Counted from the stretch's first letter, positions 3,153 to 12,011 are shown. The stretch is DNA of 64,000 nucleotides from an uncultured SAR86 cluster bacterium (GCA_902631785.1 CACOZT010000001.1:19453-83452), one strand, 5' to 3'. Numbers and translations are program-made. Notes: generated by a model from the sequence alone, not told the origin.

Positions 3153-4162
3153 AAATTTATAAAGTTGGTGGTGCTGTAAGAGATTCACTTATGAGTGTTG
3201 AATGCTCTGATACAGATTGGGTAGTTGTCGGCTCATCACCTGAAGAAATGATTTCTAAAGGCTACAGGCCTATAGGTAAAGACTTTCCAGTATTTTTACA
3301 TCCCAAAACAAATGAGGAATATGCCTTAGCAAGAACAGAGAAAAAAACAGGAACTGGTTATGGTGGTTTCACATTTTATTATGGAAAAGATGTTACGTTA
3401 GAGGAGGACTTATCAAGAAGAGATTTTACTATCAATGCCATTGCTCAAGATATTGAGGGTAATATTATTGATCCTTTTAATGGACAAAATGACATAAAAA
3501 ATAAAATTTTTAGGCACGTTTCTGATGCTTTTTTTGAAGATCCTTTAAGAGCAATTAGATTGGCAAGATTTTTTTCTTATGATCATCTTGAAGATTTCGA
3601 CATTGATGAAGCTACTGTTAAATGCATCGAAAAAATTGTTTCATCTAAAGAGATTGCAGATATTTCACCAGATAGGATCTGGTCTGAAACTGAAAGAGCT
3701 TTATCTAATTCTAGTCCAAGTAAGTACTTTGAAAAGATTATATCTTTGGACTTATTAGATCCTTATTTTAGTAAACTAAAAAAAACTTCTTGTGACAGCC
3801 ACAAGGATAAGACAGTGAGGTGGGCTGAACTTCAAATAAATAATGATTTTGAACTAGGAAGCAAGCTTCCCCTCCCCAATGATTTTAAGAATATTGTTGA
3901 GGTGTCTAAAAATGCATTGAAATTAAATATAGATACCAATCAAGACAACTTAATTTTATTAATTGATAAAATTAATTTTGTTAGAAATTTTGAATTAATT
4001 AATCAGTTAATTTCGCTACCTCATTTTAGCGATAACAAAGATTTTATTTCTCAGCTTGCAAAGAAAATTAAAAATACTGATTTCTCACATTTATCAAATG
4101 TGTCAAAGGAGAATATTGAGGAAGAAAAGATTAAAATATATAAAGAAATTATTAATAGCTAA
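3149..4162 (+). CDS. cca: tRNA CCA-adding nucleotidyltransferase, short form
   Basis: VGGAVRD, DxD, GKDFPVFLHP, EEYALARTE, RRDFTINA, EDPLR. Confidence 0.93.
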   Translation: MKIYKVGGAVRDSLMSVECSDTDWVVVGSSPEEMISKGYRPIGKDFPVFLHPKTNEEYALARTEKKTGTGYGGFTFYYGKDVTLEEDLSRRDFTINAIAQDIEGNIIDPFNGQNDIKNKIFRHVSDAFFEDPLRAIRLARFFSYDHLEDFDIDEATVKCIEKIVSSKEIADISPDRIWSETERALSNSSPSKYFEKIISLDLLDPYFSKLKKTSCDSHKDKTVRWAELQINNDFELGSKLPLPNDFKNIVEVSKNALKLNIDTNQDNLILLIDKINFVRNFELINQLISLPHFSDNKDFISQLAKKIKNTDFSHLSNVSKENIEEEKIKIYKEIINS

Positions 4163-4164
4163 AA

Positions 4165-4890
4165 ATGAATAAAACTATTTTTATAACTGGGGCAGCTAAG
4201 AGAATTGGTAAACAGATAGCTCTTACCTTTAAAGAATTAGGCTGGAATATTATTATTCATTACAACTCATCAAAAAAAGCAGCTGATGATCTTGCCGATG
4301 AAATAAATAATTCAAACGCTAACTCTGCTGTTACTGTTCAAGGAAATTTAGATGTCAAAGAAGATGTTGAAAAAATTATCAGTGAGGTTCTTGATGCATT
4401 TCCGAGTATAGATCTATTGATAAATAATGCGTCCACTTTTTACCCTACTCCAATTGATGACATTTCAGAAGATCATTGGGAGAAATTAATTGGGAGTAAT
4501 TTAAAAGGGCCAATGTTTTTAATTAAAGGACTTAAACAAAAACTTAAAGAATCAAACGGATCAATTATTAATATCACTGATACTAATTTATCAAAAGGCG
4601 TTGCTAATTACTCCATTTATTCTGCTGCAAAGGCTGGATTAGAGGCAATTACAAAAGGATTGGCAAGAGAGTTAGCGCCTGAAATAAAGGTAAATGCAAT
4701 TGCTCCAGGTGCAATGCTTGAACCACCAGATGTTACTTGGACTGAAGAACAAAAAAACAAAGTTATTGATTCTATTCCTCTTAAAAGAATGGGTTCAGAA
4801 AAAGATATAGCTGAAGCTGTAAAGTTTCTTGCTGATTCTGATTATATAACCGGGCAAATTATAAAAGTTGATGGTGGTAGGTCACTCTAA
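4165..4890 (+). CDS. Pteridine reductase (FolM-like SDR)
   Basis: ITGAAKRIG, LINNAS, YSAAK, VDGGRSL; near folB/folK. Confidence 0.85.
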   Translation: MNKTIFITGAAKRIGKQIALTFKELGWNIIIHYNSSKKAADDLADEINNSNANSAVTVQGNLDVKEDVEKIISEVLDAFPSIDLLINNASTFYPTPIDDISEDHWEKLIGSNLKGPMFLIKGLKQKLKESNGSIINITDTNLSKGVANYSIYSAAKAGLEAITKGLARELAPEIKVNAIAPGAMLEPPDVTWTEEQKNKVIDSIPLKRMGSEKDIAEAVKFLADSDYITGQIIKVDGGRSL

Positions 4891-5942
4891 TGAAGCCTCT
4901 AGATGATGCAAAATTCTCTGGTACAAAAGATGTTGATGAAAGATTAAAAATTGACTCTGCAAATTTACAGCCCTGGATTGATGAGTATGTTCCTAATGCA
5001 GGAAAGATAAAAGCAATAGAACAGTTCAAGGGAGGACAATCAAATCCTACATATAAAATAATTACCGAATCAAAAAATCTTGTTCTTCGAAGAAAACCAC
5101 CAGGAAAACTTCTGCCATCCGCGCATGCTGTAGATAGAGAATATAAAGTAATAACTGCTCTATATGAGACTGACGTACCAGTTCCTAAAACCTATGGACT
5201 ATGTGAAGATGATGATGTTGCAGGAACTGCATTCTTTGTAATGGATTTTTTAGATGGTGATCTTTTCTGGGACCCAATGATTCCCTCAATGACAAATAGT
5301 GATAGAAAAGAAATATACAAAAATAAAAATAAAACTTTAGCAAAACTTCATAGTGTTGATTATAAAAAAATTGGTCTTGAAGATTATGGTAAGCCTGGCA
5401 ACTATGTAGCTAGACAAGTATCAAGATGGTCTAAGCAATATAGGGCTTCAGAAACAGACAATATTGAAGCTATGAATAATCTCATTGATTGGTTACCAAA
5501 AAATATACCTGATGATGATGAGACAACTATCGTTCATGGCGATTACAGATTAGATAATATGATTTTAAAAAATAATGAAGTAGTTGGTGTTCTAGATTGG
5601 GAACTATCAACTCTAGGTCATCCAATCGCAGACTTTAGTTATCACTGTTTGTCATGGAGAACTCAAGAAGCCTTTTGGGACGAAGCTAAATTAAAAGAAC
5701 TTGGTATACCTACTGAAAGGGAATATATGGAAATGTATTGTGAGAATTCTGGTAAAGATTTGTCTAAAAATTGGGAGTTTTATATGGCTTTTAATATGTT
5801 TAAGATTGCTGGAATTTTACAGGGCATACTAGGAAGAGTAAGAGATGGAACAGCTGCATCAAAACATGCTGAAGAAAGAGGCAATATGGTCTTTCCTCTT
5901 TCTGAAGCAGCATGGAGAACAATAGAAGATAACTTGCTTTAA
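4890..5942 (+). CDS. APH-family phosphotransferase (ACAD10/11 N-terminal-like)
   Basis: GGQSNPTY, LRRKPPG, SAHAVDREY, HGDYRLDN, DWELSTLG. Confidence 0.88.
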   Translation: MKPLDDAKFSGTKDVDERLKIDSANLQPWIDEYVPNAGKIKAIEQFKGGQSNPTYKIITESKNLVLRRKPPGKLLPSAHAVDREYKVITALYETDVPVPKTYGLCEDDDVAGTAFFVMDFLDGDLFWDPMIPSMTNSDRKEIYKNKNKTLAKLHSVDYKKIGLEDYGKPGNYVARQVSRWSKQYRASETDNIEAMNNLIDWLPKNIPDDDETTIVHGDYRLDNMILKNNEVVGVLDWELSTLGHPIADFSYHCLSWRTQEAFWDEAKLKELGIPTEREYMEMYCENSGKDLSKNWEFYMAFNMFKIAGILQGILGRVRDGTAASKHAEERGNMVFPLSEAAWRTIEDNLL

Positions 5943-5944
5943 AG

Positions 5945-7396
5945 TTATCTAAATTTTATTGCTAATCTTCTGTCAAAATAGTCTTCTAATTCCTTGATAT
6001 GGCTTATCTCCATAGGATGATCTCTCTTTAAAACATTTAATTGGTTAATTACAGTTGAAATTGTTATATAGTCTTGATCTTCTTGATTGTTATCCAAGTT
6101 AAATAATTTCTGTTCACAGTATCTTCTGTATCTTTCTTGAGTCTCAATCGGTGCTAAATGAATATCATATTCAAGTATGGTTTTCTTTCCCATTCTAACA
6201 ATTCTGTTATTTGGATCTAAAATCCCACTCTCTTCAGTAAACCTCCATCTGTCTTGCCAATTTAGATCATTGAATTGATTAATAAAACTCGTTTCAGCAG
6301 GAGTTACAAAATTTTCAAATATTGATTTTTCTATTGGTTCTTTAGTAAGGTCAGTTGTAAATTGTTCATCAAAGAATTTAAGAGCTCCTCTTGCAACCTC
6401 TTTCAAATTTAAATTCTTTCTTAATTTAAGAGCTCTATTTTTTAATTCTTCTAATGAAAGATTATGTGGGTTGTAACAATATTTGAAATAACTTTCAGGA
6501 AAAAATATTTTTGCACGATTGAGAGGTACCTTTATAAAAATATTATCTAAATCATATTTTTTTTGTATTTGTCTAAAAATTTCCCAGCATGATAATGTCT
6601 GAAGTTCATCAGGATTAACAAGAGAAATATCAAGTCCTAAAATATTATTCCCGTTAGATGAGAAACACAATGGAGCAACTATCTTACCCATAATAGAGTC
6701 ATCAAAACCCAAAACAGTGCAGAAAAACAAATTCTCATCCACTAAACCCTTTACAAATTTTTTGGACGAACAAAACATTGCCCGCCTTAAGATTTGTGGT
6801 GACTCGTATCGCATCAAATTAAACAAAGATATTAAGGCAGATACATCTTCTCGAGCATCATGAGGTTGATTGTTAAAATTATTTTCACGTATGATGTCTT
6901 CAAGACGAAAAGAAGGTACGTCGACTCGATTGTAAGGAAGATTTATATACTCTAAATCCCCCTTTTGTATAGCAAAAATAGTTTTTAGAGTCTCGTAGCC
7001 ACAAAAAACTTGATTGCTTGTTTTCCAAGAATACCAATCAGGACATATTAAGTTTTGATAATAGCCACAAAAAGTAAACTTAAAATCAAATGAAGAATTG
7101 TATGCAATTATGTAATCTCCGGAATATTTTTTGTTAAATAAATATTCTTGATGATGAAGATCATGAACAGGAATACCATTCTCAAGTTGATCTGCAGATA
7201 CCCTGTTAGTCATTAGTGCATATGGAGATGGTAATCGTGAACTTTCTCCACGAGCTTCTAAATAAAGTTCATCCAGAATTTGATCATTACAAAATCTTTT
7301 GGTCGAATGAGACAAGACCTGACCTGTAAATGGATCTAAGCTATCTGTTTCATGATCTTTAGCTAATATAGGTTTATTTAATATATCGATACTCAT
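5945..7396 (-). CDS. Divergent exonuclease I (SbcB)-like DEDDh 3'-5' ssDNA exonuclease
   Basis: KDHET (ExoI motif), AYNSSFD (ExoII), PSFRLE..PHDAREDV (ExoIII) align with E. coli SbcB HDYET, GYNNVRFD, PSFRLE..AHDAMADV; similar length. Confidence 0.75.
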   Translation of the reverse strand: MSIDILNKPILAKDHETDSLDPFTGQVLSHSTKRFCNDQILDELYLEARGESSRLPSPYALMTNRVSADQLENGIPVHDLHHQEYLFNKKYSGDYIIAYNSSFDFKFTFCGYYQNLICPDWYSWKTSNQVFCGYETLKTIFAIQKGDLEYINLPYNRVDVPSFRLEDIIRENNFNNQPHDAREDVSALISLFNLMRYESPQILRRAMFCSSKKFVKGLVDENLFFCTVLGFDDSIMGKIVAPLCFSSNGNNILGLDISLVNPDELQTLSCWEIFRQIQKKYDLDNIFIKVPLNRAKIFFPESYFKYCYNPHNLSLEELKNRALKLRKNLNLKEVARGALKFFDEQFTTDLTKEPIEKSIFENFVTPAETSFINQFNDLNWQDRWRFTEESGILDPNNRIVRMGKKTILEYDIHLAPIETQERYRRYCEQKLFNLDNNQEDQDYITISTVINQLNVLKRDHPMEISHIKELEDYFDRRLAIKFR

Positions 7397-7983
7397 AAAA
7401 ATCCCCTTTTTCTTTTAATAACTTTAAATACTGAGATAAGCCAATCTTCAGCCCATAGAGGATTTTGTTCATTTGGTTTAACCCTAAAAACTTCAATTCC
7501 ATTCAACTTTACAAATTTTAATCTTTCTTCCTCAGAGAAATGAGATTTGTTACAATGCGAATCGCCATCAACTTCGAGTCCAAAAAAGAAGCCGTTAATA
7601 GCTACAAGAAAATCTAACTCAACTCTTTGTTGATTAAGACATTCTGCTACAGGAAGTGGCCAATAAAGAAATGTAAATTCAGGTCCTTTTTCTTTTGCAA
7701 TCCTTTGATTCATTTTATAAAGGGCTTTATGCACGGCAACCTCCTGGTCGGTACGGTGAGGGAAATTATTCCAAATAAGATCACAATTGTGAGCAACATT
7801 TGAAGTATGTGCCATGCCATTGCATCCGCCAAATTCTTTCATGATCCCTATGAGTGGATGTTCCATATTCTTTGGTGGATGGCTTTGAATAATATTCTTT
7901 AGCCCTTCTTCATTAATGTTTTTAGTATCATCATCATAATTAGAAATTTTAATTATGTTTTCGTCGGTTTTATTATTGTTCAT
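7393..7983 (-). CDS. DUF559/Vsr-like PD-(D/E)XK endonuclease
   Basis: RTDQE, ELDFLV, LEVDGDSH, RLKFVKLNGIEVFRV match the TxxE / DF / EvDGxxH / R..L..G..V.R pattern. Confidence 0.7.
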   Translation of the reverse strand: MNNNKTDENIIKISNYDDDTKNINEEGLKNIIQSHPPKNMEHPLIGIMKEFGGCNGMAHTSNVAHNCDLIWNNFPHRTDQEVAVHKALYKMNQRIAKEKGPEFTFLYWPLPVAECLNQQRVELDFLVAINGFFFGLEVDGDSHCNKSHFSEEERLKFVKLNGIEVFRVKPNEQNPLWAEDWLISVFKVIKRKRGFL

Positions 7984-7991
7984 TCCTACTT

Positions 7992-8546
7992 TTAAGTACT
8001 TATATTGTTTTCGTAAATATTTGGTTGATTGCGCAGATTAACAACTATCATTTCTTGTTTTAATAAGTGCTTCCAACCCAGACGATCCCATGAAAGCAAA
8101 TCATTTCCAGAATAAAATAATGCAAATAAACACATTACTGATGATGGAGATATCGATAGCTCCTCACAATAAAGCTGAAGTTGTGCACAAAATAAATATG
8201 GCCAATTTGAAAGATTTTGAGATGATATTTTAGGAAGAAATGAATTTGCACCTTGAAAAAAATCTAACATGTCATAAATTTGAATGTCTATTCCAGCCCT
8301 ATCACTCAAAATATTTAAATTAGAAAGATCAAGATAATGATTTATTGAGTAATCAAAATAATCCCATGAATCTTTATCTTTAGGCACTTGGATATTTAAA
8401 GCATTTAAAATTTTTGATGGTTTAACATCCTCCAAAACTGCCATTCGTTGAACTCTCTCAGCAATAGTTAAGTTAAGTAATTCTGCATTGGAAACATTCC
8501 ATAATTCCTTATATAATTCTTTATTCATATTTTTTCGTGTCTCCAT
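7992..8546 (-). CDS. Hypothetical protein, first gene of the nuclease operon (start may be 8528)
   Basis: 184-aa ORF, 8 nt from the next gene, sigma70-like promoter upstream; no family recognised. Confidence 0.65.
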   Translation of the reverse strand: METRKNMNKELYKELWNVSNAELLNLTIAERVQRMAVLEDVKPSKILNALNIQVPKDKDSWDYFDYSINHYLDLSNLNILSDRAGIDIQIYDMLDFFQGANSFLPKISSQNLSNWPYLFCAQLQLYCEELSISPSSVMCLFALFYSGNDLLSWDRLGWKHLLKQEMIVVNLRNQPNIYENNIST

Positions 8547-8550
8547 TTCG

Positions 8551-8570
8551 TCCGTCCATTTTAAGACGGA
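8551..8570. promoter_or_regulatory. Palindrome TCCGTC-N8-GACGGA, candidate operator
   Basis: Perfect GC-rich 6-bp inverted repeat in an AT-rich divergent intergenic region. Confidence 0.5.
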
Positions 8571-8575
8571 TAATG

Positions 8576-8604
8576 ATATTAAAGCCTTGCAACTAATAAA
8601 TCAA
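8576..8604 (-). promoter_or_regulatory. Putative sigma70 promoter of the nuclease operon
   Basis: Minus strand TTGATT-17bp-TAATAT. Confidence 0.4.
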
Positions 8605-8670
8605 CCTATTTAATAACTTTTTTAATAAAAATTTGTGGTATCATTTCTACAGACAATAAAAAATAATTAT

Positions 8671-9636
8671 ATGAAACCGATTCAATTTGAAAAAATAAAT
8701 TTTGGTTCACAAGACTATCAATTCACTAACAGAGTTGAATTAGATCAAGCAGAGGCTGAATATCTTAAGCTTGTATTACAATTCCGAGATGTGAACGATC
8801 GTTTTACTGATAAAAGTAAAACATCTTTAAGGCTAGATAAGTACTTGTTGTGGCAGCTTGAACTTATATCAAGAGTTTCCTCTGAAAAAAGAATTTTAAA
8901 TAACAGAACTTACGGAGATATTCTTTCTAATTTATTAAAATACGTATATTACCCCGAAACTTTTCAAATTGATCCTGAAACCCTGTTGTTGCCAAAAAAA
9001 TATTTAAACAAACTATATTTAATGGACAATGGTGATTATGAAGTAGTTACTCTTCCAAGTCTTACTTGGGACTGGGACTACATTTTAAGAACAATCAAAT
9101 TGGCTATTTTTGATCCTCATTTATTGTCATTTTTTGAATTAACTTTATTAAGAACAATATTAATGAATGAATTGTTTGTCGATAAGCCTTATGAGTTAAG
9201 AGGTATTGCTAGCTTGAATAAATTTAATGAAAAGGTAGTGAGTAAGGATATGATTGACTTTTTAAAGGATAGAGTGGTCTTTAACTGGTATCAAATTTTT
9301 AATTATTTTGGGAGAAACTCTTCAGAGACCTTTATTCAAAAACAAGTTAAATATATTAATGACTCTGTGAGCGAAGGAAAAAAACCTAGTCCAAAGGGAT
9401 ATAAATCAGGATATACGCCTAAATCAAAACCCGGAATGCCTCAGTTGCTTGAATTTGAGGACATAGATGATAATGATAAGAAAGCAAAAGAATCATATAT
9501 GCTAAATTATTTGGAAGACGAACATAAAAAATGGCTGGATCATTATTGTGGATTAGAACAAGGAGGGTTTGAGAAAGATTTTAGAATTTCTGTTGCATTA
9601 TCAAAAAAACAGGGAGATTTTATGACGTATTTATAA
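8671..9636 (+). CDS. Hypothetical protein with a possible N-terminal ribbon-helix-helix motif
   Basis: Long ORF (track start 8635; ATG 8671 preferred, downstream of extended -10 TGGTATCAT at 8636-8644); KTSLRLDKYLLWQLELIS...TYGDILSNLL resembles RHH. Confidence 0.65.
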   Translation: MKPIQFEKINFGSQDYQFTNRVELDQAEAEYLKLVLQFRDVNDRFTDKSKTSLRLDKYLLWQLELISRVSSEKRILNNRTYGDILSNLLKYVYYPETFQIDPETLLLPKKYLNKLYLMDNGDYEVVTLPSLTWDWDYILRTIKLAIFDPHLLSFFELTLLRTILMNELFVDKPYELRGIASLNKFNEKVVSKDMIDFLKDRVVFNWYQIFNYFGRNSSETFIQKQVKYINDSVSEGKKPSPKGYKSGYTPKSKPGMPQLLEFEDIDDNDKKAKESYMLNYLEDEHKKWLDHYCGLEQGGFEKDFRISVALSKKQGDFMTYL

Positions 9637-9643
9637 GAGAATT

Positions 9644-10252
9644 TTATCTTTTAACAAAAAATAAAGTTATTCCTGATATTGAAGTCACTAGAGCAAGCAC
9701 TGATAAAATTTGTAGCAAAATATTATTTATATTATCTCGTTCACGATAATCCATTATATGCAGGGACCATAAAAAATCCCAGATTCTCCAAGAGTCTGAT
9801 CTTATTGATCCTATATCACCCGTCATATATCCAACATAAACATTAATACCGTCTTTTGTATCCGTTATAACTTTATATGCTGGCAAATCTCCTCGATATT
9901 CATCGCCAGGATAGAATTCTGTAACTAAACTAACATCTATTGGATTTAGAGTAGTTTTTTGAGCAGTAATTTTAATAGCTTCTTCCTCAGTAAGAGGTTT
10001 AATGGCATCACCTTCTGGATAAGTTTTATAAGTCTTTTTACCCTCTTCAATGGTTTCAATAACTGATGTACCAAGCCTATCAAAAATTCTGTACTCTACA
10101 CCTTTTGGAAGTCGATACTGCTCACCTCTTACTAATTCAATTTTGTTATATGCAAAATAAATTCCTGAAATTGTCCACAACAATAATTGTATTGACACAA
10201 ATATGCTCAAATATCTATGAAAGTTTCTAAAAAATTTTTTTGTTCTCATCAA
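9644..10252 (-). CDS. PepSY-associated TM helix membrane protein
   Basis: FHRYLSIFVSIQLLLWTISG and WRIWDFLWSLHIMDY His-containing TM motifs. Confidence 0.8.
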   Translation of the reverse strand: MMRTKKFFRNFHRYLSIFVSIQLLLWTISGIYFAYNKIELVRGEQYRLPKGVEYRIFDRLGTSVIETIEEGKKTYKTYPEGDAIKPLTEEEAIKITAQKTTLNPIDVSLVTEFYPGDEYRGDLPAYKVITDTKDGINVYVGYMTGDIGSIRSDSWRIWDFLWSLHIMDYRERDNINNILLQILSVLALVTSISGITLFFVKR

Positions 10253-10626
10253 ATTAATTCTTTTAAAGGTGCAGATACGAAACTATATTTCTGAATTTCA
10301 TCACTTTCAAATAATATATCATCGTTATCATCAATTTGAAGCACAATATCTATATCAAGTGTTCTAGCGCTAAACTTTGGAGCATTTCTGTTTCTTCCAG
10401 CATTGTCTTCAATTAACTTTAGCTTCTTATTGAGGTTCTTAATATCTAGTTCAGAATCTCCACAAACTACTGAGTTTAGAAAATCATCACCTTCAAAGCC
10501 TTCAGCTTTTGTTTGATGAATTGATGAGGACTGAATGTTTGAAAGTATTTTTTTTAGTTCTTCTAAAGCAAATTCTAAATTTTTCTCAGCATTAATGTTA
10601 CTGCCTAGGGATAAGAAATATTTCAT
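10249..10626 (-). CDS. folK: 2-amino-4-hydroxy-6-hydroxymethyldihydropteridine diphosphokinase
   Basis: LSLGSN, FLNSV, ARTLDIDI. Confidence 0.92.
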   Translation of the reverse strand: MKYFLSLGSNINAEKNLEFALEELKKILSNIQSSSIHQTKAEGFEGDDFLNSVVCGDSELDIKNLNKKLKLIEDNAGRNRNAPKFSARTLDIDIVLQIDDNDDILFESDEIQKYSFVSAPLKELI

Positions 10627-10973
10627 TATCTATGAATTATGAGTCCAACATCTTTAGCGCCTCGAAGTGCTCCAGGCTTAGATACACGTAATTTGATCGA
10701 TTCAACTCCGTATGTATCTTTTACTAGCGATGCGATTCCCTCAGCAAGTGATTCTTGGAGTTGAAAGGACGACTCCTCAACAAACTTAATTACTCCTTTG
10801 CAAATGGTTTTGTAATCAATAGTATCTTCAATCGAATCAGTCTTTGCAGCTCTTTTACAATCAAAGGGAAATTCCATATCAATACTAACTTCTTGTTTAA
10901 CTTTTCTTTCCCAGTCAAAGATACCAATGATTGTTTTTACTCTTAAGTCTTTTATGTAAATTATATCTTTCAT
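10626..10973 (-). CDS. folB: Dihydroneopterin aldolase
   Basis: IIGIFDWER, TIDY, KPGAL. Confidence 0.94.
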   Translation of the reverse strand: MKDIIYIKDLRVKTIIGIFDWERKVKQEVSIDMEFPFDCKRAAKTDSIEDTIDYKTICKGVIKFVEESSFQLQESLAEGIASLVKDTYGVESIKLRVSKPGALRGAKDVGLIIHR

Positions 10974-11974
10974 GCTTTCAACTCATCTAACGGCCACCTA
11001 GCTCTTGCGCTTGAGGATCTGTCATTTTCAACTGATGGTTTCATCATAGATCCTACAAATGCAATCATTGCAGCATTATCGCCACAATACTTCATATCTG
11101 GATAATACACTGTTATGTTATGTGATTCTTCAAGCTTTTTAAATTCACCTCTTAAAAACTTATTTGCAGCAACACCTCCAGCAACAATAACCTCTTTTCT
11201 TCCAGTTATTTCAATCGATTTCTTAATCTTTGCAACCAAAACATCTGAAATTGCTTGTTGGAATGAAGCAGCTATATCTGCTTTTACTTCTTTTGTTAGA
11301 TTAGATATTTTTTGAACTGTATATAAAACTGATGTCTTAAGACCACTCAAGCTCATATTTAAGTTATCGCTATTTATCATCGGTCTTGGGAAATCAAATG
11401 CATCCGATTTTCCTTCAAGTGCTAGTCTCTCAATATGAGGGCCGCCTGGATAAGGTAAATCTAGCAACTTAGCTACTTTATCAAAAGCTTCTCCAACTGC
11501 ATCGTCTTGAGATTGACCAATAATTTCATATTGTCCTTTATCTTTAACATCAACGATCATGCTGTGACCTCCTGAAACAAGTAAACATATAAATGGCATG
11601 CTTATCTGAGGAAATTCCATCATAGGTGACATCAAATGTCCTTCTAAATGATTTATTGGTATCAGAGGGATATTTAGCGCTGTTGAAAGTCCCTGAGCAA
11701 AACTCTCACCTATCAAAAGAGCGCCTAATAGACCTGGTCCAGATGTATAAGCAATCTGATCAATGCTATCGAGAGAAATATTTCCTAAAGCATCTTCAAG
11801 TACATCTACAATTTTTAAGCAATGGTCTCTTGAAGCTAATTCTGGGACTACTCCTCCATATTCAGCATGCATTTCCATTTGACTATGTATAGACTCACCA
11901 ATAATTCCATCTTTAGTGTCATAAATGGCTATTGCTGTCTCATCGCAGGATGTTTCAATTCCTAAAGTTTTCAT
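10970..11974 (-). CDS. tsaD: tRNA N6-threonylcarbamoyltransferase
   Basis: LGIETSCDET, GGVVPELASRDH, HLEGH, LLVSGGH, DNAAMIA. Confidence 0.97.
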   Translation of the reverse strand: MKTLGIETSCDETAIAIYDTKDGIIGESIHSQMEMHAEYGGVVPELASRDHCLKIVDVLEDALGNISLDSIDQIAYTSGPGLLGALLIGESFAQGLSTALNIPLIPINHLEGHLMSPMMEFPQISMPFICLLVSGGHSMIVDVKDKGQYEIIGQSQDDAVGEAFDKVAKLLDLPYPGGPHIERLALEGKSDAFDFPRPMINSDNLNMSLSGLKTSVLYTVQKISNLTKEVKADIAASFQQAISDVLVAKIKKSIEITGRKEVIVAGGVAANKFLRGEFKKLEESHNITVYYPDMKYCGDNAAMIAFVGSMMKPSVENDRSSSARARWPLDELKA

Positions 11975-11982
11975 AAAAAGTT

Positions 11983-12011
11983 TTGCAAAAATGTTAATAA
12001 AAGCCTAAACT
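11983..12011 (+). promoter_or_regulatory. Putative sigma70 promoter of rpsU
   Basis: TTGCAA-17bp-TAAACT followed by a GC-rich discriminator-like ACGCGAC. Confidence 0.5.

Follow-up and report, generated by a model that had tools for sequence, protein, structure and literature searches.

We analyzed a 64,000-nucleotide stretch of the genome of an uncultured SAR86 cluster bacterium (GCA_902631785.1, CACOZT010000001.1:19453-83452; hereafter the window) and characterized a four-gene cassette in it, which a preliminary description made from the sequence alone had singled out. The coding part of the cassette consists of four open reading frames (ORFs), three of them tightly coupled on the minus strand and one divergent on the plus strand (Table 1). 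The three coupled genes, which we refer to as the core, encode a protein with two tandem repeats (the two-repeat protein), a Vsr-like endonuclease and a divergent copy of exonuclease I (ExoI). The two-repeat and endonuclease genes are separated by 8 nt (7984-7991), and the endonuclease and ExoI ORFs overlap by 4 nt, ATGA (7393-7396); this arrangement is exactly as first described. An APH-family phosphotransferase gene (4890-5942) and a PepSY-TM gene (9644-10252) converge on the cassette, which fills the interval from one stop codon to the other; its guanine-cytosine (GC) content is similar to that of these flanks. The host assembly comprises 1.03 Mb at 75% completeness, with a GC content of ~32%.

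Table 1. Features of the cassette and its borders (positions counted from the first letter of the window; aa, amino acids)
Feature	Position	Strand	Description
ExoI ORF	5945-7396	-	483 aa, second divergent exonuclease I (SbcB-like, DEDDh)
Endonuclease ORF	7393-7983	-	196 aa, DUF559/Vsr-like
Two-repeat protein ORF	7992-8546	-	184 aa, two tandem ~70-aa repeats; signature gene of the cassette; unclassified
Divergent gene	8635-9636 as ORF	+	333 aa; probable coding part 8671-9636, 321 aa
Divergent intergenic region	8547-8670	.	Predicted from the sequence to hold both promoters and an operator
Divergent 3' end of the flanking APH-family phosphotransferase gene	5913-5939	+	Compared with congener G014
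Divergent 3'-terminal tract of the PepSY-TM gene	9644-9793	-	Compared with congener G014

Contigs assembled in other studies bridge the left junction (X3 record 14, 5906-6301, 0 differences) and the right junction (X6 record 23, 9198-9745, 1 difference), and an assembly chimera is thereby excluded. Among the cassette ORFs there is neither an integrase nor a transposase, in line with the preliminary description, and we found no terminal or att-like repeats at the cassette, the repeats detected there resembling chance matches. A promoter scan of the cassette stayed at chance level (23 found vs 20.7 expected), a scan for terminators detected none in it, and Rfam gave no match in window positions 4000-12000. 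Over 11 nt the right junction resembles the 3' end of APH in some congeners, a similarity that we rejected as too weak in AT-rich DNA.

The cassette is an accessory insertion at a junction that is empty in almost all relatives. Within the same genus, it was found in 0 of 22 other loci cut around the APH gene. APH and folB lie on the same contig in 116 family genomes, and the gap between them exceeded 1150 bp in three of these: the window genome, G069 and G012. G069, which belongs to a different genus, carries the same cassette in this gap; at the APH-pepSY junction of G012 (contig C1, L063:9039-10988) we found instead a single 649-aa restriction gene of the GmrSD family (DUF262/DUF1524; Pfam E = 4e-31, PADLOC HEC-06 E = 2e-47). 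Profile searches with the ExoI family identified 2 of 265 genomes of the order (1 of the 57 near-complete ones), and the two-repeat profile matched none of 399 further genomes sampled from the class. In seawater, marine or unlabeled metagenomes (four of four runs, from four studies), contigs covered the cassette at a median depth of 0.011-0.053 of that over the flanks; this ratio is not the share of cells carrying it, and the flanks recruit related species at 90% likeness. Loose contig ends at 9642-9643 display the empty junction. The preliminary description had proposed that the genes are accessory rather than core and had predicted such a dip in metagenome depth, and both expectations were borne out.

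Searches of viral contigs returned no relative of the ExoI family; the endonuclease pattern gave two reported matches there, from which 0 loci were recovered, and a viral copy is conceivable. Annotated phages and plasmids contained only ordinary sbcB (24-29% identity). Pattern scans of genome contigs found no cassette, and these scans are insensitive, as the G069 copy escaped them. The junction also varies in other ways. The pepSY-TM and DUF6356 genes are themselves present or absent by lineage between APH and folK, with gap classes of ~400, 630 and 1000 bp, and in one genome (G018, L065:3528-4013) the APH-folK junction holds a basic ORF of 161 aa that neither Pfam nor PADLOC matches, possibly a small nuclease or other cargo.

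Where the cassette does recur, its core is constant. Wherever a homologous locus offered enough DNA (8/8), the order was two-repeat gene, endonuclease gene and ExoI gene, the gaps between them spanning -17 to +30 nt, in agreement with the earlier expectation that homologs co-occur; a ninth homologous locus, L057, holds ExoI only. Identity to the window proteins was about 26-39% for the two-repeat protein, 33-52% for the endonuclease and 36-46% for ExoI. We were able to measure dN/dS in four gene pairs, the more distant pairs being saturated, and obtained 0.12, 0.40 and 0.22 for the three core genes of L053 vs L054 and 0.15 for the ExoI genes of L055 vs G069. The cassette genes are under purifying selection, and these ratios together with the constant gene order argue that the locus is not a product of chance.

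Alleles found at one site are very diverged (most pairs 24-58% identical), and parts of the cassette are exchanged between them. The ExoI proteins of L055 and G069, for example, are 89% identical, whereas their other two core genes are 35-38% identical and their divergent regulator genes are of different types. The core genes of L053 and L054, in turn, are 90-97% identical and their regulators 32%. It is highly improbable that a lost mobile element left the cassette behind as neutral or decaying cargo, as the codon usage of three of its four genes (in the lowest 11-13% among 775 ORFs of the genome) might suggest: reading frames are intact across nine copies (a contig end truncates one of them), the catalytic residues described below are invariant, and dN/dS lies between 0.12 and 0.40. 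Purifying selection largely refutes the decay of the cassette.

The junction region from folK to APH houses six of the nine copies, which lie to one side or the other of pepSY or beside a DUF6356 gene. The insertion point lies between APH and pepSY in the window, between folK and pepSY in L053 and L054, and between folK and the DUF6356 gene in L055, L056 and G069. L058 occupies a second converging junction, between a gene reading as rpmB and an ATP-binding cassette (ABC) binding-protein gene; this junction is empty in the window genome (G000:C1 ~223,515), where the genes read as rpmB and an iron ABC binding protein. Finally, the contig of L059 terminates in a tRNA 3' fragment whose anticodon is CAT (4380-4438), and its opposite end (61-810) encodes a protein of 249 aa that combines K/R/Y-rich repeats with an HNH-like motif, read by eye, at the C-terminus; these ends suggest an integrative element. 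The cassette occupies at least three sites.

The flanks of the window cassette retain short divergent tracts. Compared with the closest congener, G014, the last 27 nt of APH contain 8 differences and the preceding 200 nt contain 4, and this divergent APH 3' end likely came in with the cassette. The 3' end of PepSY-TM has 18 differences in 150 nt, followed by 2 in the next 250 nt, and it possibly arrived in the same way; the gene is mosaic anyway, with 33 differences in 250 nt at 10044-10293. As neither an integrase nor a terminal repeat is present, we infer that homologous recombination in the conserved flanking genes is the likely route by which the cassette spreads. An origin on a tRNA-integrated element is possible. 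Across window positions 3800-5900 and 9800-11000, the sequence is mostly 0.93-1.00 identical to G014 close to the junction vs 0.78-0.91 farther off; this peak may reflect cross-species recombination centered on the site or plain gene conservation.

The two-repeat protein belongs to a small family, with 18 representatives (E ≤ 1e-10) among 1.84 billion proteins, the full-length ones being 164-192 aa long. Each repeat unit consists of a strand, a long helix, P-S, a short helix, a strand and W. Aligning the N-terminal half with the C-terminal half by hhalign gave a probability of 96% and a score of 46.7, compared to a maximum of 15.8 over 60 column shuffles. An AlphaFold2 model of the protein (predicted local distance difference test score 86.7, predicted template modeling score 0.80) contains two helices followed by a Trp loop in each repeat. 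None of the libraries we searched puts a name on this protein. Its model had no fold match in the Protein Data Bank (PDB) by Foldseek, in the PDB by VIA (best Z 2.8) or in BFVD, a result that does not in itself make the fold new, and the ESM Atlas returned helix-turn-helix (HTH) leads that were weak (0.75-0.76); a Cro/C1-type HTH would have three helices, one of them for recognition. The net charge of the protein is negative in eight of nine copies.

Outside the cassette, one relative of the two-repeat protein was found in another operon. In G225 (contig C10, L087:8156-10341), downstream of birA, a homolog of the HTH-type regulator found in some cassettes faces a nuclease operon; this encodes a 237-aa DnaQ-like DEDDh exonuclease, directly after it a 96-aa homolog of the two-repeat protein with one repeat only, and an 85-aa ORF without assignment (homology probabilities of 98% for the regulator and 84% for the single-repeat protein). 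The repeat domain therefore occurs together with a DEDDh exonuclease in two distinct operons. No cassette endonuclease was found in the G225 genome (76% complete). Two weaker matches to the two-repeat family were dropped as chance: a 401-aa protein of G105 that resembles a membrane transporter (E = 2.5e-4) and a match in G106 (E = 4.8e-4).

We assigned the endonuclease through its family. The window protein alone has no Pfam match, whereas 11 of 20 family members matched DUF559 (PF04480) at E ≤ 0.1 (best 2.3e-4), one of them just over the curated cut-off (21.4 vs 20.6 bits), and 5 of 20 matched MTES_1575. E81, D124 and E137-x-D139-G-x-S-H143 are invariant in 20/20 members and reproduce the Vsr/DUF559 catalytic pattern E, D, E-x-D-G-x-x-H, so the nuclease motifs named in the preliminary description hold across the family. 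The N-terminus carries a conserved, family-specific motif, G-x-N-G-x-A-H. PADLOC gave one weak restriction endonuclease match each for 2 of the 20 proteins, and the family profile matched an 'endonuclease-like protein' (3hrl) weakly (E = 0.34); its matches to GlmS and penicillin acylase were rejected as chance.

The same fold raises a homing-type explanation, in which a free-standing EDxHD/Vsr-fold endonuclease would cut the empty junction and drive copying of the cassette. EDxHD homing endonucleases do have the Vsr fold (PMC3239194), and the short replaced tracts in the flanks fit such copying. We consider this very unlikely, as the insertion points differ among copies (APH-pepSY, folK-pepSY, folK-DUF6356, rpmB and tRNA-linked) and the cassette stays rare. 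The NUMOD region is described as a feature of EDxHD homing endonucleases (PMC3239194), and profile scans recognized no NUMOD-type domain in the window endonuclease or its family. The gene is free-standing and has no fixed intron or intein site, which sets it apart from EDxHD homing genes. ExoI, moreover, would strip the 3' tails needed for homing repair.

The third core protein is an exonuclease I by architecture. Positions 8-367 of its family profile align with positions 8-376 of E. coli ExoI (1fxx, E = 3e-25), so the family has the three-domain length and its match extends past the nuclease domain; PF08411 was matched by two of the three members scanned. The catalytic residues D14, E16, D104, H179 and D184 are invariant in 17/17 aligned sequences of the family and correspond to D15, E17, D108, H181 and D186 of E. 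coli ExoI (numbering mapped through Erwinia SbcB, offset of one); all five are kept, as the preliminary description had recognized from the DEDDh motifs. Against NCBIfam PRK11779, the window protein scored 67 bits (E = 1e-18), under the cut-off of 260, and the housekeeping SbcB copies of the order likewise fall under this cut-off (at most 186 bits).

Cassette ExoI is a second copy, of a lineage separate from housekeeping sbcB. The host's own housekeeping sbcB is located at G000:C7:3003-4391, contrary to the possibility, raised at the outset as one that would undo the accessory reading, that the cassette gene is the only sbcB. A family search matched sbcB in 59 of 60 relatives, two of these matches being weak (E ~5e-4), and the window ExoI is 21-26% identical to the relatives' housekeeping proteins. 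Two of the housekeeping matches, G041:C1:545328-546686 and G053:C1:53649-55010, contain one TAG stop each. A quick IQ-TREE analysis placed the cassette proteins in one clade (Shimodaira-Hasegawa-like approximate likelihood ratio 100, stem 2.1), with one outgroup row (L068) being a wrong ORF; FastTree with the correct Erwinia protein again grouped 17/17 cassette ExoI proteins (stem 1.5, printed support 0.54 after re-rooting). They fall outside the clade of the relatives' chromosomal sbcB and are not its orthologs. Proteins P0039 and P0040 were omitted from alignment A6, and P0082 and P0083 from alignment A9.

The residues that anchor single-stranded DNA (ssDNA) in E. coli ExoI are described as R113, Y124, W128, R134, K214, N257, N304, Y368 and F371 (PMC3675492). 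The equivalents of Arg113, Tyr124 and Arg134 are replaced in 17/17 cassette proteins, which thus lack the full anchor set; W128, K214, N304 and F371 are kept, Y368 is mostly F, and N257 is variable. In housekeeping SbcB, the same three residues are kept in 18, 18 and 18 of 20 rows, the remaining two rows being fragments. The positions that we take to form the binding site for single-stranded DNA-binding protein (SSB) are likewise unconserved in the host housekeeping SbcB copies, which makes them uninformative on SSB binding. Because the catalytic site is intact and R113, Y124 and R134 are replaced, the cassette protein is predicted to be an active nuclease with an altered grip on long ssDNA. 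The loss of three anchor residues beside an intact active site offers a direct test of what makes ExoI processive.

Opposite the core, the intergenic region facing the divergent gene measures 86-219 bp across all nine copies. The closest homologs of the window's divergent gene start at the Met encoded at 8671, which is probably its start as well (321 aa) rather than 8635. The protein has a conserved T-S-x-R...L-W-x-L-E-L-I-S-R block followed by a second helix, and a monomer model places helices at 57-72 and 81-93 after T-S-x-R, followed by a large helical C-terminal part. ESM Atlas leads to NikA, MetJ and ParB-C were weak (0.78-0.80, below 0.9), 0 of 13 family members had a Pfam ribbon-helix-helix (RHH) match, and fold searches with the model, which hardly covered its N-terminal part, found no match (best Z 4.7, on a pair of C-terminal helices), again a result that does not make the fold new. 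The prediction of an RHH regulator from this model is only a lead. Across copies, the divergent gene is RHH-like in five of nine and of an unrelated HTH type in four of nine, with no similarity between the two kinds of protein (probability 0.2%). The preliminary description had placed an RHH-like gene opposite the core and proposed a regulator of the module's own; a divergent gene always faces the core, but the RHH type is not fixed.

Homologs of the RHH-like gene in two related genomes, G255 (L086:4306-9284) and G257 (L085:7718-12281), face a nuclease operon as well (probability 92%). This operon encodes a Cas4-like PD-(D/E)XK nuclease, an 88-aa ORF and a type II restriction endonuclease, and it adjoins a C5 methylase gene. 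The restriction endonuclease differs between the two genomes, their neighbors look nearly identical, and G255 additionally has a T5orf172-like gene.

Taken together, we propose that this rare cassette, with its fixed three-gene core and exchangeable divergent gene, is an uncatalogued nuclease defense against phage or other foreign DNA, a reading based on comparative sequence analysis to which we assign a probability of roughly 55%. Defense is favored because the cassette combines rarity with high allelic diversity, a restriction gene is the alternative occupant of its junction, and homologs of its regulator have nuclease and restriction-modification neighbors. Strong divergence of alleles under purifying selection is the pattern expected of genes in host-parasite conflict. 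In such a system, the Vsr-like endonuclease would cut target DNA, and the dedicated ExoI would digest 3' single strands that replication, displacement of a strand or a helicase of the host exposes; with two arginines and a tyrosine gone from its anchor site, it would probably be less processive or have a shifted substrate preference. The acidic two-repeat protein, as sensor or inhibitor, would hold the endonuclease off the host chromosome until infection, and repression of the operon would fall to the product of the divergent gene, whether RHH or HTH. Insertion between converging stop codons would break no gene.

Several observations weigh against a defense system. The cassette encodes no helicase, ATPase or methylase, which leaves strand opening and the discrimination of self from non-self unexplained. 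As ExoI digests single-stranded DNA (PMC3675492) and no helicase is encoded, a plain nick-and-resect scheme is incomplete. Three of the four window proteins have no PADLOC match, and the match of ExoI to RTasSbcB is weak (54 bits). The cassette stands alone amid housekeeping genes, outside any multi-system defense island; only one other defense gene was found at this junction in the 116 genomes, and the link to restriction-modification runs through the regulator homolog in two related genomes, not through core genes. The loci are not independent, as the closely similar cores of L053 and L054 illustrate. Assigning a role to the two-repeat protein from its position and charge is a guess, and the other cassette proteins are mostly acidic too. 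The nick-and-resect defense module of the preliminary description is thus partly supported: GmrSD at the same junction and the restriction-modification neighbors of the RHH homologs lend defense indirect support, the missing helicase does not agree with nick-and-resect, and the underlying observation is confirmed.

A related and more speculative scheme, which we regard as unlikely but worth stating, is that the cassette is a three-component immune system, not described before, of streamlined ocean bacteria, in which ExoI has been repurposed through its rewired anchor site to guard against, or act as a decoy for, ssDNA or anti-nuclease proteins of phages. The two-repeat protein, whose fold may be new, would then couple the signal to release of the endonuclease. 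Recombination at shared junctions would shuffle the exonuclease and regulator among alleles and so provide frequency-dependent immunity at the level of the population, with no mobility gene involved.

The same genes could also form an accessory DNA-repair module, in which the Vsr-like enzyme would nick a lesion or mismatch, the two-repeat protein would recognize the damage and ExoI would trim the displaced strand. Vsr is described to nick at T:G mismatches (PMC3239194) and E. coli ExoI to take part in mismatch repair (PMC3675492), and ultraviolet damage is plausible in the habitats sampled by the seawater, marine or unlabeled metagenomes. We nonetheless doubt this explanation. A gain in repair would be expected to spread or to be clade-wide, yet the cassette is in 2 of 265 genomes; it comes in many diverged alleles with swapped parts, the host retains its own sbcB, and the third genome with a large insert there has a restriction gene in it.

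It is similarly improbable, in our view, that the cassette is a selfish addiction element without benefit against phage, kept by post-segregational killing with the endonuclease as toxin, the two-repeat protein as antitoxin and ExoI clearing toxic ssDNA. The small acidic gene directly upstream of the nuclease gene and the autoregulator-like divergent gene resemble such an arrangement, and L059, with its tRNA 3' fragment and the HNH-like gene at its other end, looks as if on an integrative element; host SbcB is also described to suppress DRT10 toxicity (bioRxiv 10.64898/2026.04.29.721553). Streamlined genomes of ~1.0-1.8 Mb are, however, not expected to keep 3.7 kb without benefit, and most copies have no mobility genes. 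Addiction also overlaps with abortive-infection defense and does not exclude it.

Streamlined surface-ocean bacteria are thought to have few immune systems, and most are uncultured. With 3.7 kb and at least seven diverged alleles, the cassette is a compact, clonable candidate, and it joins two DNA-repair folds with a protein family unnamed in the searched libraries.

We compared the cassette with known systems using PADLOC-DB 2.0.0, dated 2023, as the defense library. The core genes do not make up any catalogued system in its defined combination, and the exonuclease alone matches, weakly. We found no paper on an architecture of DUF559, exonuclease I and two-repeat protein in a literature search whose scope did not extend to screen supplements and subscription journals. 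The preliminary description likewise recognized no named system with this architecture.

Among single enzymes, E. coli ExoI/SbcB (1fxx, PRK11779) shares the DEDDh, SH3-like and helical architecture by profile alignment; the cassette copy differs from it by its long separate branch, the loss of R113, Y124 and R134, and its operon with an endonuclease. Vsr, DUF559, MTES_1575 and the EDxHD enzyme I-Bth0305I share the catalytic pattern E...D-F...E-x-D-G-x-x-H with the cassette endonuclease. Unlike them, the latter has no dcm partner, intron or intein, or recognized NUMOD, has its own N-terminal motif, and is always flanked by the two-repeat gene and ExoI. The GmrSD type IV restriction gene of G012 (PF03235/PF07510; PADLOC HEC-06) shares the cassette's junction, but it is a single gene with nuclease domains unrelated to those of the cassette.

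The nearest analogies are the roles of SbcB described in systems with a defense-associated reverse transcriptase (DRT) (bioRxiv 10.64898/2026.04.29.721553, PMC9226505, PMC9122126). RTasSbcB, a DRT entry in PADLOC that ties SbcB to defense, is the best PADLOC match of cassette ExoI (E = 3e-15); the window region and the eight homologous cassettes contain no reverse transcriptase, and the cassette also lacks an Rfam-listed RNA and a SLATT gene. In DRT10/UG17, the SbcB described in a control role is the host copy (bioRxiv 10.64898/2026.04.29.721553). A further analogy is found on a Mesorhizobium plasmid (NZ_CP080530, L067:1030-10639), where an HTH gene and an IrrE gene accompany an SbcB-like exonuclease (RTasSbcB, 318 bits) between a ThiF/JAB/ubiquitin-like cluster and a TerB-ATPase-helicase cluster, with no reverse transcriptase in the stretch examined. 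The HTH and IrrE pair is presumably CapH/CapP-like, a label that no search returned. This module likewise combines an accessory SbcB and a regulator amid defense-type genes, but its SbcB is of another lineage, a peptidase takes the place of the endonuclease, and there is no two-repeat protein. The trio is absent from these nearest analogous systems, and should the cassette restrict phage, it would represent a new system type in which exonuclease I has been recruited as a dedicated immune component.

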